From assembly GCA_963800895.1 (NCBI GenBank), contig CAWDDA010000015.1, positions 152,994-216,993 on the forward strand: a stretch of 64,000 nucleotides of DNA, written 5' to 3'. Below the pieces are notes generated by a model. That model did no database searches. It was not told the origin of the DNA and worked only from the letters and a program-made list of their open reading frames with translations. Source of the DNA: an uncultured Acidobacteriota bacterium (lineage in GTDB: Bacteria; Acidobacteriota; Blastocatellia; RBC074). The translations under genes and the position numbers were made by a program. Numbering within the stretch: the stretch's first letter is position 1; each line of letters starts with the position of its first letter. Below, in pieces: positions 24,503 through 26,536 of the stretch.

Positions 24503-26536
24503 ATGCACAAACCAGTGAAGTATGTGGAACGCGGGATATCCAAAATTGCTGGAGGCACCTTCGATCTAATTCAATCGTTCAATAAGTTCAAACCCAATCC
24601 ATCATTCACTCCGAAATGGTCGGACAAACCGCTGCAGAAGTCGTGGCAGAAATCAAAGCCGCCACTGGGATGGCCGCGTACGACGGATTCGCTATGTCCA
24701 AAGTGTGTCAAGGAAGCACGGAAGCGCATTATTGAAGACGGTGAGGACCCGTGGAAGGTTGTTGCGGAGAAACCGGGCGAGATTAAGGCAACAATTGTTG
24801 AGCGCAACGGCGAGATCTGGATGGTAAAGGAATGCCCGCTTCACGGAACCTGTGAAGACATGATGGCAATGGACTCGAAGTTCCTCGAGCACGTCGAGTC
24901 GATGTTCCCGGGCCGGGACATTGATGCTCACAACGACGAGAAGGTACATCACCACGCAAGCTCGACAGTCAAGTTTGGCAGGGGTTCGGTGCTCACTATC
25001 GACCTCACAAATCGCTGCAACATGATGTGCGATCCTTGCTTCATGGATGCCAACCAGGTTGGATTCGTTCACGAGCTCAGCTGGGACGATGTCAAGGAAG
25101 TCCTCGACAATGCGATAGAAGTAAAGCCGCGGCGCCAGATGTCGGTTCAGTTTTCGGGCGGCGAGCCTACACTTTCTCCTTATTTCATCGATGCGATCAA
25201 GTATGCGCGCAAGGTCGGATACAACTCGGTTCAGGCAGCTACCAATGGCATCGAGTTCGCCAAGTCGAAAGAGTTTTCCCGCAAAGCAGCCGAGGCTGGT
25301 CTCCGGTACGTCTATCTTCAGTTTGATGGCATCGGAAACGCTGCCAACAGCCACCGCCAGGTTGGGAATCTGTTCGATGTCAAGTTGAAGGCAATCGACA
25401 ATATCCACGAAGCGGGTATCGAGATAGTCCTCGTAACGACGCTCGTCAATGGTGTCAACAACGACGAAGTCGGGCCCGTAATCCGCTTCGCGATGGACAA
25501 TCCGAAGAAGATCTCGTTCATCTCGTTTCAACCGGTATCGTTCACAGGACGCGATGAAGACATTACGGATGACCGTCGCTTGAGGCAACGGTACACGCTC
25601 TCTCACATGGCGTGGGACGTGAAAAAACAGGTAGGGATCACCGATCCGCACCGCGACTGGTTCCCGATTTCATTGATGAGTGCGTTCGCGGATTTTGCCG
25701 ACCTGGTACATGGACCAACGGCGGAATGGGGGCAGATGAGCTGCGGTTGCCATCCGAACTGTGGTGTTGGTACCGCGATCATGATCAACAAAGAGACCAA
25801 AGAGATGTCGCCGATCGGTGAATTTATCGATGTTCCCGGGCTGGTTCGCGACATGCGCAAAGTAACTGATGCTGCGCGGGGCAAGTGGTTCTCGAATTTC
25901 ATGATGGGGCTTGTGCTTCTCAAGAGCTACAACTCATTTAGCGCTCCGAAGAGTTTCAAGCTGACTGACCTGTTGACGAAATTCGACAAGACCTTCGGGC
26001 TTACGGGCAAGGACTACGGCAAAGTAAGTCCGGATCGAACCATGGAAGACGTCGCGCGCCGGAGGCAGGACCCCTGGAATTTCCTGTTCATCGCAGGAAT
26101 GTGGTTCCAGGATCTCTTCAACTATGATTTCCGGCGCACCGAGATGTGCATCATTCCCTATGCCACGCAGGAAGGCGAGATCTCATTCTGTGCCTACAAT
26201 ACCGGCATCGGCTGGCGCAACATCATCGAGAACATGCACCAGAACGCTACGGTTGCGAAGTGGTACCAGGAACACGGACGCCACGAGGTGATTGCTAACA
26301 ATCACAACGTCACGCTTGCGGATGCCTCGCACCGCCTGGTTGTAAACGTGGACGACGCAGGGCGCGGACGCGAAAAAGGCACGCTGCCCCAGACTGCAAA
26401 GGAAGAGCAGCAGATGATCAAGAAGCTCTACATGCAGTCGGTGCTCAAGCAGAACAACGTCGAATCCAACCTGGTACAGCTGAAGAGCGCAAACGGCAAG
26501 AAAGACGAAGGCCGCGCAGCGGTCATGGTCCGCTAG
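24503..26536 (+). CDS. Radical SAM enzyme, COG1964 / tetraether (membrane-spanning) lipid synthase Tes-like
   Basis: CNMMCDPC (CX3CX2C) lies at nt 25016-25039. The N-terminal motif is SLCPKC...KECPLHG. Extra Cys clusters are SCGCHPNCG and MCIIPY...FCAYN. I prefer ATG 24503, which has a GAGGGGAGAG RBS, over the upstream GTG 24455. Confidence 0.7.
   Translation: MHKPVKYVERGISKIAGGTFDLIQSFNKFKPNPSFTPKWSDKPLQKSWQKSKPPLGWPRTTDSLCPKCVKEARKRIIEDGEDPWKVVAEKPGEIKATIVERNGEIWMVKECPLHGTCEDMMAMDSKFLEHVESMFPGRDIDAHNDEKVHHHASSTVKFGRGSVLTIDLTNRCNMMCDPCFMDANQVGFVHELSWDDVKEVLDNAIEVKPRRQMSVQFSGGEPTLSPYFIDAIKYARKVGYNSVQAATNGIEFAKSKEFSRKAAEAGLRYVYLQFDGIGNAANSHRQVGNLFDVKLKAIDNIHEAGIEIVLVTTLVNGVNNDEVGPVIRFAMDNPKKISFISFQPVSFTGRDEDITDDRRLRQRYTLSHMAWDVKKQVGITDPHRDWFPISLMSAFADFADLVHGPTAEWGQMSCGCHPNCGVGTAIMINKETKEMSPIGEFIDVPGLVRDMRKVTDAARGKWFSNFMMGLVLLKSYNSFSAPKSFKLTDLLTKFDKTFGLTGKDYGKVSPDRTMEDVARRRQDPWNFLFIAGMWFQDLFNYDFRRTEMCIIPYATQEGEISFCAYNTGIGWRNIIENMHQNATVAKWYQEHGRHEVIANNHNVTLADASHRLVVNVDDAGRGREKGTLPQTAKEEQQMIKKLYMQSVLKQNNVESNLVQLKSANGKKDEGRAAVMVR

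Follow-up and report, generated by a model that had tools for sequence, protein, structure and literature searches.

A bacterial, cofactor-reduced relative of the archaeal tetraether lipid synthase in an uncultured acidobacterium

The stretch of 64,000 nucleotides (nt) analysed here (contig CAWDDA010000015.1 of assembly GCA_963800895.1, positions 152,994 to 216,993 of the forward strand; hereafter the window) comes from an uncultured soil member of the Acidobacteriota, and carries at 24503-26536 on the + strand a gene for a protein of the radical S-adenosylmethionine (SAM) kind, which raises the question whether this protein joins lipid tails into membrane-spanning lipids, and with which cofactors it would do so. 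A preliminary description, made from the letters alone, had recognised an open reading frame (ORF) of 677 amino acids (aa) at this position with the motif layout of COG1964, the family that includes the archaeal tetraether lipid synthase Tes/GDGT-MAS, and had named it a prime candidate for the acidobacterial membrane-spanning lipid step. The ORF (677 codons plus stop) was reproduced by ORF listing and translation, and the family assignment holds: its product is a bacterial relative of Tes/GDGT-MAS with a complete structure but a reduced set of cofactors. The supposed acidobacterial origin is likewise borne out by the closest homologues, which are labelled Blastocatellia, Blastocatellales or Acidobacteriota, and by synteny, with a 20-kb stretch being collinear with a metagenomic contig bearing an 89%-identical orthologue; together these place the genome in the Blastocatellia (subdivision 4).

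The protein contains an HMPTM-type zinc ribbon (PF23545; 50 bits against a cut-off of 27, E=2e-13) followed by a radical-SAM domain (PF04055; 72.9 bits against a cut-off of 29.5, E=4e-20, residues 168-330), which is the architecture of COG1964 (IPR034474) and is shared by all listed homologues. The best NCBIfam model is the Tes equivalog NF045702 (332.3 bits, E=4.6e-99), which matches over positions 2-483 of its 486 and spans residues 61-580 of the protein, and the top solved structure by sequence is GDGT-MAS (PDB 7TOL, E=2.6e-65, residues 94-567, ~29% identity); homology E-values of this size exclude a chance origin of the resemblance. An AlphaFold2 model from 104 sequences (predicted local distance difference test 88.6, predicted template modelling (TM) score 0.88) retrieved 7TOM and 7TOL first in Foldseek (7TOM with E=1e-36, target-normalised TM 0.88 and 555 aligned columns), with the whole C-terminal lipid-binding domain superposing on 7TOM, and the predicted model thus has the four-domain fold of Tes. 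The next match was MoaA with a TM of ~0.5, and MoaA, viperin, SkfB, HydE and others fit the radical-SAM core only. The best full-length profile and structure matches are therefore Tes, and not peptide maturases or cofactor synthases. Like archaeal Tes, the protein is predicted to be soluble, without a transmembrane segment.

The archaeal enzyme GDGT-MAS (MJ0619) has four metallocentres (Lloyd et al.): a rubredoxin-like iron bound by C9, C12, C33 and H36, an N-terminal auxiliary cluster ([4Fe-4S]N) with ligands C73, C77, C80 and a histidine (H83), the radical-SAM cluster, and a C-terminal auxiliary cluster ([4Fe-4S]C) with three cysteines and the labile Met439, which stores the first lipid radical as an S-C adduct; Met439 and Tyr459 are fully conserved in 1000 archaeal homologues. 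The family had previously been credited with a rubredoxin-like site and a single auxiliary cluster, which is correct for the former, whereas the auxiliary [4Fe-4S] clusters of Tes number two. We compared these sites with the 12 cysteines of the window protein (65, 68, 111, 117, 172, 176, 179, 414, 416, 420, 549 and 563) and with 85 orthologues from several phyla (66-100% identity). The rubredoxin-like (zinc-ribbon) domain (24683-24868, +) provides C65, C68, C111 and H114 in the arrangement C-x2-C-x42-C-x2-H, corresponding to C9-x2-C12-x20-C33-x2-H36 of MJ0619, with C65, C111 and H114 invariant in the orthologues and C68 present in 84/85. Its CPKC (24695-24706) and CPLH (24833-24844) motifs had been placed correctly, but the spacer between SLCPKC and KECPLHG is 40 residues (C68-x42-C111) instead of 37, and the insertion reported between the two motifs is present with a size of ~22 aa instead of ~25 aa (C12-x20-C33 in MJ0619). 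The radical-SAM motif CNMMCDPC (CX3CX2C; 25016-25039, +) is where it was described, and its cysteines C172, C176 and C179 are invariant, as is the GGE motif.

The ligands of a putative C-terminal cluster also align with those of the archaeal enzyme. The motif C414-G-C416-H417-P-N-C420 (25742-25762, +), within the SCGCHPNCG group at 25739-25765, supplies C420, which aligns with the cysteine of the MJ0619 HQHCG motif, and M533 (equivalent to Met439), C549, Y553 (equivalent to Tyr459) and C563 follow at 26099-26191 (+), overlapping the second late cysteine group MCIIPYATQEGEISFCAYN (MCII...FCAYN, 26144-26200); both groups had been noted before. C420, M533, C549, Y553 and C563 are invariant in the orthologues, and the full set of invariant residues further comprises C65, C111, H114, H143, H149, H151, C172, C176, C179, C414, C416 and H417. 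The N-terminal cluster is a different matter, as the MJ0619 segment GCPYDCGLCPNH aligns with EKVHHHASSTVK, in which C73/C77/C80/H83 are represented by V148/A152/S154/K157, and there is no cysteine in residues 118-171 of the window protein, nor in this region of any of the 85 orthologues. What is left is a degenerate loop of aa 143-160 (HNDEKVHHHASSTVKFGR; 24929-24982, +). The alignment of auxiliary ligands, proposed earlier as a check on the family, thus succeeds for the catalytic C-terminal cluster and fails for the N-terminal cluster, the ligands of which do not exist here. The NCBI equivalog gives a similarly divided result, with a family match that stays below the Tes cut-off of 450 bits (332.3 bits here and 299-321 bits in other members of the N-cluster-less class), while 504-593 bits are reached by five representatives in which the CPxxCGxCxxH motif is retained. 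Since these proteins are without one of the four Tes metallocentres and score below the cut-off, their electron supply, and perhaps their reaction, may differ from that of Tes.

Known Tes proteins offer no explanation for the invariance of H143, H149 and H151 (24929-24957), located in the loop that replaces [4Fe-4S]N, or for that of C414 (25742-25744), and these four residues might form a small replacement metal site. A replacement cluster from C117, C414 and C416 was also considered and rejected, as C117 is a cysteine in only 6/85 orthologues (mostly Phe in the others), and C416 is common in homologues that keep the N-terminal cluster.

A search of 1.84 billion cluster representatives returned 552 clusters at E<1e-30, and alignment of the full-length representatives separated these into two groups, one with the N-terminal cluster motif, which includes MJ0619, and one with LHxHG(S/T)SxxK(Y/F)GRG in its place. 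A crude neighbour-joining tree parts the same two groups, with the bacterial N-cluster homologues grouping with archaeal Tes. We refer to the N-cluster-less group as class B, which by its residues is characterised by the CGCHPNCG motif, the LHxHG(S/T)S loop where Tes has its N-terminal cluster, and extensions at both termini. Scanning one genome per species with two peptide patterns (CGCHP[ND]CG, which is the diagnostic short pattern for class B, and SFQPVSFT) gave at least 595 confirmed loci. The best 80 of these encode proteins 66-81% identical to the window protein, with approximately 45 loci in Blastocatellia/Pyrinomonadaceae, six in Gemmatimonadota, and one each in Eisenbacteria and Vulcanimicrobiota, next to other Acidobacteriota (Terriglobia including Acidiferrales, Bryobacterales, Solibacteraceae, Versatilivorator). 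Members of the family are highly abundant in metagenomes from soil and peat, and nearly all proteins found in the homologue searches and cluster look-ups were from metagenomes or metagenome-assembled genomes (MAGs), the sole isolate being Terriglobus roseus, which belongs to a sister clade. Four of the 50%-identity cluster representatives (P0134, P0206, P0230 and P0137) are visibly frameshifted or chimeric, with motifs replaced by out-of-frame Arg/Ser/Pro-rich text, and surveys that count representatives therefore over-count 'divergent' members.

The sister clade consists of 120 proteins (P0132 and P0405-P0523), all of metagenomic origin except its representative P0132 (WP_014786616.1, T. roseus DSM 18391), which is 41% identical to the window protein. 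Like class B, the T. roseus type is without the N-terminal cluster, has the rubredoxin-like and radical-SAM sites and is of similar length, but it has lost C414, C416, C420 and C549 as well as the Tyr, with C563 lost in half of the proteins, and it scores 239 bits against the Tes model. Without these cysteines it cannot hold the catalytic C-terminal cluster in the same way. Judged from their ligand residues, bacterial Tes homologues fall into at least three predicted cofactor classes, namely with the N-terminal cluster, without it (class B), and without both auxiliary clusters (Terriglobus type), and simple gene surveys by BLAST, the published ones included, therefore lump together proteins whose functions may not be the same.

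Compared with archaeal Tes/GDGT-MAS (MJ0619, 7TOL/7TOM; MA_1486), the window protein shares the four-domain fold, the 3Cys+1His rubredoxin-like site, CX3CX2C, the cysteines of the C-terminal cluster and the residues equivalent to Met439 and Tyr459, but has no [4Fe-4S]N ligands, and differs by the 22-aa rubredoxin insertion, a 60-aa N-terminal and a ~97-aa C-terminal extension and the extra invariant residues C414, C416, H143, H149 and H151; the lipids of its host are fatty-acid-based and not isoprenoid. The bacterial homologues that keep the N-terminal cluster (such as P0164, P0165, P0170, P0176 and P0178) belong to the same family, also have bacterial hosts, have been proposed as synthases of brGDGTs (branched glycerol dialkyl glycerol tetraethers), and mostly share the C-H-P-x-C form of the C-terminal motif, but these retain CPxxCGxCxxH, are ~540-630 aa long and at most 38% identical to the window protein. 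Both types may occur together in Solibacter usitatus, a brGDGT producer with two Tes homologues (Halamka et al. PMC10087280). Acid_5929 (545 aa, 40% identity to MA_1486) would, by its published statistics, be of the N-cluster-keeping type, and the length and published statistics of Acid_2410 (714 aa, matching MA_1486 at 30% identity with E=4e-62) fit class B, of which a Bryobacterales orthologue (L083) is likewise 714 aa long. If confirmed as class B, Acid_2410 would place this subtype in a cultured brGDGT producer.

Two other radical-SAM enzymes are known to act on lipid chains. Mss of Thermotoga maritima and Thermoanaerobacter ethanolicus has been shown to couple two fatty-acid tails to diabolic acids, and is postulated to use the same auxiliary-cluster mechanism as Tes, but BLAST does not detect it as a homologue of Tes, and it is confined to anaerobes and was active only upon anoxic expression; mss homologues are absent from Acidobacteria according to a published survey. 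The synthase of glycerol monoalkyl glycerol tetraethers (Gms) is similarly a radical-SAM enzyme that makes C-C cross-links in lipids, is thought to have three [4Fe-4S] clusters and a Tes-like mechanism, but it has a SPASM domain and no rubredoxin domain, while the window protein has the rubredoxin domain and two cluster sites only.

All that the Tes mechanism needs is kept in the window protein except for the N-terminal relay cluster, and SAM-dependent tail coupling is therefore its likeliest function. By analogy with Tes, and with moderate confidence, we lean towards a class B enzyme that couples the terminal carbons of two membrane-lipid alkyl chains by radical-SAM-driven C(sp3)-C(sp3) bond formation, yielding chains of the iso-diabolic-acid type. 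Chains of a suitable kind are at hand, as all Blastocatellia have iso-C15:0 as their main fatty acid, iso-diabolic acid is common in this class, and iso-fatty-acid tails end like phytanyl chains (Zeng et al. PMC8941075). We infer the substrate, product, mechanism and membrane docking of the class B enzyme, as well as its regulation. Following the MJ0619 scheme, the C172/C176/C179 cluster would cleave SAM to the 5'-deoxyadenosyl radical, which would remove a hydrogen at the isopropyl terminus of a chain with iso branching (iso-C15-type), and the resulting lipid radical would be held as an S-C adduct on the C-terminal [4Fe-4S] cluster, with C420, C549 and C563 as ligands and C416 and/or M533 as fourth. 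A second SAM turnover would activate a second chain, which would attack the adduct and form the C-C bond, and the products would be C30 chains of the iso-diabolic-acid type, as found in branched glycerol trialkyl glycerol tetraethers (brGTGTs), brGDGTs or ester analogues. Electrons probably enter via the rubredoxin-like iron site C65/C68/C111/H114, with the second relay, [4Fe-4S]N, being absent, and the soluble enzyme is probably held at the membrane by its extensions and its amphipathic N-terminal helix, as would suit a peripheral membrane protein.

A number of points weigh against tail coupling. None of the bacterial Tes homologues has been demonstrated to make any lipid, and expression of the T. 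ethanolicus Tes homologue in Escherichia coli gave no membrane-spanning lipid (Sahonero-Canavesi et al. preprint). Tes homologues are found in only 3/14 iso-diabolic-acid-producing acidobacteria, from which the survey authors proposed another, aerobic pathway, and S. usitatus, with its homologues and abundant brGDGTs, shows no detectable iso-diabolic acid. The lost [4Fe-4S]N and the sub-threshold Tes scores belong here too, as do the orthologues of ~70% identity in Gemmatimonadota, Eisenbacteria and Vulcanimicrobiota, phyla for which we know of no report of membrane-spanning lipids. The best 80 of the at least 595 class B loci are all from MAGs, with no cultured strain among them, although cultured Blastocatellia make iso-diabolic acid; this evidence is indirect, as the number of loci is a lower bound. 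Finally, clustering of the flanking ORFs of 85 loci identified no neighbour shared by more than 22 of these, and no linked lipid gene in any lineage. Many of these points would also suit an enzyme with the same fold and radical machinery that carries out another reaction on a hydrophobic chain without forming membrane-spanning lipids, such as intramolecular macrocyclisation, a Gms-like cross-link between chains, the formation of a ring, or chemistry of the C-S type on another lipid, for instance a hopanoid, carotenoid, alkylresorcinol or ornithine lipid. The gap between the class B scores (299-332 bits) and those of the N-cluster-keeping homologues (504-593 bits), the exchange of [4Fe-4S]N for three invariant histidines, an extra invariant C414 and two extensions, the distribution over phyla without reported membrane-spanning lipids, the lack of Tes homologues in most iso-diabolic-acid producers and the negative result in E. 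coli all favour such an enzyme. We nevertheless think it unlikely, while taking it seriously, as every residue known to matter in Tes catalysis is invariant, the whole C-terminal lipid-binding domain superposes on 7TOM, the host lineage is rich in iso-C15 chains, which are a natural analogue of the Tes substrate terminus, and the gene shows no linkage to a pathway for any other substrate.

The coupling function could also be taken further, with class B as the general iso-diabolic-acid synthase of Acidobacteria (subdivisions 1, 3, 4 and 6). The required chemistry matches while the responsible enzyme is still unknown, mss is absent from Acidobacteria, and the gene is widespread in acidobacterial MAGs of several classes; it is hard to see, though, how a general synthase would be accompanied by any Tes homologue in just 3/14 producers, by an S. 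usitatus that has homologues and no detectable iso-diabolic acid, by a T. roseus DSM 18391 protein, the one Terriglobales protein from a cultured strain among the homologues found, that belongs to the sister clade without C-terminal-cluster cysteines and Tyr, and by the lack of cultured Blastocatellia among the best 80 genome matches, which makes this extension quite improbable. Least probable by far, to the point that we hardly expect it, is a function outside lipid metabolism, be it as a pterin methylase of radical-SAM class D, as a peptide maturase of the SPASM type or as part of a TrsS-like system. Many orthologues do carry JGI names such as '7,8-dihydro-6-hydroxymethylpterin dimethyltransferase', which go back to the old MJ0619/HMPTM annotation, and there are weak matches to the NCBIfam TrsS model (NF045646) and to SPASM maturases, but the pterin-methylase role of MJ0619 was not reproducible and has been replaced by the lipid function, with a narrow hydrophobic tunnel as active site (Lloyd et al.). 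The TrsS match reaches 211.8 bits where at least 490 are needed and covers residues 93-378 only, the SPASM and MoaA matches are confined to the radical-SAM core (residues ~160-360), no precursor peptide or partner gene is conserved next to the 85 loci, and no methanopterin pathway is linked to the gene in bacteria of the host lineage. The peptide-maturase, cofactor-synthase and pterin-methylase readings were thus rejected, on the core-only matches and the non-reproduction by Lloyd et al.

With tail coupling as the preferred function, a role of class B in the formation of tetraethers of the brGTGT/brGDGT type under particular conditions is plausible. The earlier designation as prime candidate is credible in this sense, but the role of acidobacterial Tes homologues in brGDGT or iso-diabolic-acid synthesis is a hypothesis already published in 2022 (Zeng et al. 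PMC8941075; Chen et al. bioRxiv 2022.04.07.487437; Halamka et al. PMC10087280), and its strong iso-diabolic-acid form is weakened by the 3/14 producers. A 96%-identical protein already bears the JGI label 'tetraether lipid synthase', and since family, hypothesis and automated label all pre-exist, the inference as such is not new. The literature searched describes neither a division of bacterial Tes homologues by their cofactors nor a strongly conserved clade, spread through soils, that has lost [4Fe-4S]N, and it is equally silent on the diagnostic motifs and extensions of class B and on the probable sigma-54 control in Blastocatellia discussed below. The brGDGTs are among the most used terrestrial proxies for palaeotemperature and pH, with their biosynthetic enzymes and main producers still unknown, and the bacterial Tes homologues, which are the leading candidates in aerobic lineages, have so far been treated as one family. 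Class B, which the closest relatives (labelled Blastocatellia) carry, shows extreme conservation from one soil phylum to the next (66-96% over at least 595 species genomes), and its motif and putative sigma-54 site give testable markers and constructs. It is possible, though we regard it as somewhat doubtful, that class B is the form of membrane-spanning lipid synthase of aerobic soil lineages, and hence the gene marker that has been missing for a large part of the brGDGTs in soil. If so, the loss of [4Fe-4S]N, a cluster exposed at the surface, would have been an adaptation to oxygen, and the pool could include the alkaline-soil producers for which Chen et al. (bioRxiv 2022.04.07.487437) had suspected members of subdivisions 4 and 6. 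Control by sigma-54 and an enhancer would then explain why membrane-spanning ether lipids are seen only under certain conditions (low O2, stationary phase), and this conditional control would also account for cultured strains in rich aerobic media being poor models.

Upstream of the gene, the distance to the divergent CpsB/CapC phosphatase gene (23045-23842, -) is 660 nt, and not the 610 bp of non-coding DNA given in the preliminary description. This region contains a candidate sigma-54-type promoter, TGGCCCACGGATCGCA (24242-24257, +), with GG and GC at -24/-12 spacing, which lies 261 nt upstream of the ATG and is conserved in position in close relatives, many of which have the element TGGCAC-N5-TTGC. 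Taken alone, the window site is not above chance, with 27 matches in the window where 19 are expected, and the promoter call is based on conservation across loci instead. Within 500 nt, 28/83 loci have a coding-strand site that agrees with the consensus at 9/11 positions or more, and all of these are of the Blastocatellia type, with none upstream of the Terriglobia and Gemmatimonadota orthologues among the 83 loci scanned, and the density of such sites was 0.75 per kb upstream of the orthologues versus 0.03 per kb in controls. A promoter scan found no sigma-70 promoter on the coding strand, and expression of class B in Blastocatellia is probably conditional, from the sigma-54 promoter. Upstream alignments identified further conserved islands between 23975 and 24225 (+), consisting of TTTTGAC (23977-23983 and 24219-24225), AATTTGACTCAAAA (24058-24071) and TAAACTC (~24110); the TTTTGAC-type islands are confined to the closest relatives and may be sites for an enhancer-binding protein. 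An NtrC-type sigma-54 activator (receiver, Sigma54_activat and HTH_8 domains) is encoded 8 kb downstream (34546-36054, +) and is syntenic in a related contig (L002, 19798-21219), and a link between this activator and the promoter of the Tes-like gene is speculation. An RNA element in the 660-nt region was considered and rejected, as the whole window gave no Rfam match at gathering thresholds, and the 243-nt putative leader is no more stable in its folding than shuffled sequences (z=-1.1).

Translation may alternatively start at a GTG at 24455, which would add 16 residues (693 aa), but the ATG at 24503 is preferred because it is preceded by GAGGGGAGAG, and because orthologues of 677-679 aa open with the same M-x-K-P-[IV]-K-Y. 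A 319-aa antisense ORF (24692-25651) is a shadow of the coding frame. The first 60 residues (24503-24682, +) are absent from MJ0619, with the Tes profile beginning at residue 61, and this conserved N-terminal extension had been overlooked; it comprises a helix of aa 2-27 that is amphipathic (hydrophobic moment 0.55) and modelled with a high local confidence score, followed by a Trp/Lys/Pro-rich part (aa 26-60) with a conservation of 0.86 among the 85 orthologues. At the other end, the charged C-terminal tail reported as ~60 aa does exist as an extension beyond the Tes core, where the Tes profile stops at residue 580, but it is ~97 aa long (aa 581-677; 26243-26533, +), partly conserved and partly helical, with aa 632-651 forming a helix, '...VLK...LVQ[IL]' as a conserved motif, and disorder, according to the model and the orthologue tails, only in the last 24 aa. 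The gene has its own intrinsic terminator, as had been noted (26574-26609, +), with the hairpin (26574-26599) starting 38 nt past the stop codon and consisting of an 11-bp stem with 7 G-C pairs and a 4-nt GAAA loop, followed by TGTTTTT.

Annotation of the neighbours and comparison of the 85 loci agree with the gene standing alone as a monocistronic unit. Upstream are CpsB/CapC and two M16 peptidases, and downstream a Gfo/Idh/MocA oxidoreductase, PBP4, HemC/HemD, AroA and MurB, in an order that is kept only in the closest relatives and differs in others. Neighbours shared in up to 22/85 loci (SurE, Pcm, a DedA/VTT protein, a lytic transglycosylase and phosphoglucomutase) were seen in Pyrinomonadaceae only. 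The check for plsA/Ger-like ether-lipid genes proposed earlier was run in the 64-kb window, where no elb, plsA/Ger, fatty-acid or Mss-like gene was found. Further downstream, a TonB-receptor-like gene (CarboxypepD_reg and outer-membrane beta-barrel) is present as two overlapping ORFs of 872 and 385 aa (36200-38818 and 38658-39815, both -), while its syntenic counterpart in L002 is a single 1305-aa product, and the split in the window may stem from a frameshift or from an error in the sequence, or mark a pseudogene. A region of ~5 kb (~43000-48200) is free of tRNAs and Rfam matches and has on neither strand an ORF exceeding 153 aa, and its GC content falls to 0.50-0.51 at both ends, versus a window mean of 0.54. 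Finally, a Ser/Thr protein kinase fused to an FGE-sulfatase (formylglycine-generating-enzyme-like) domain is encoded at 54107-56041 (+), followed by genes for PEGA-domain and alpha/beta-hydrolase proteins.

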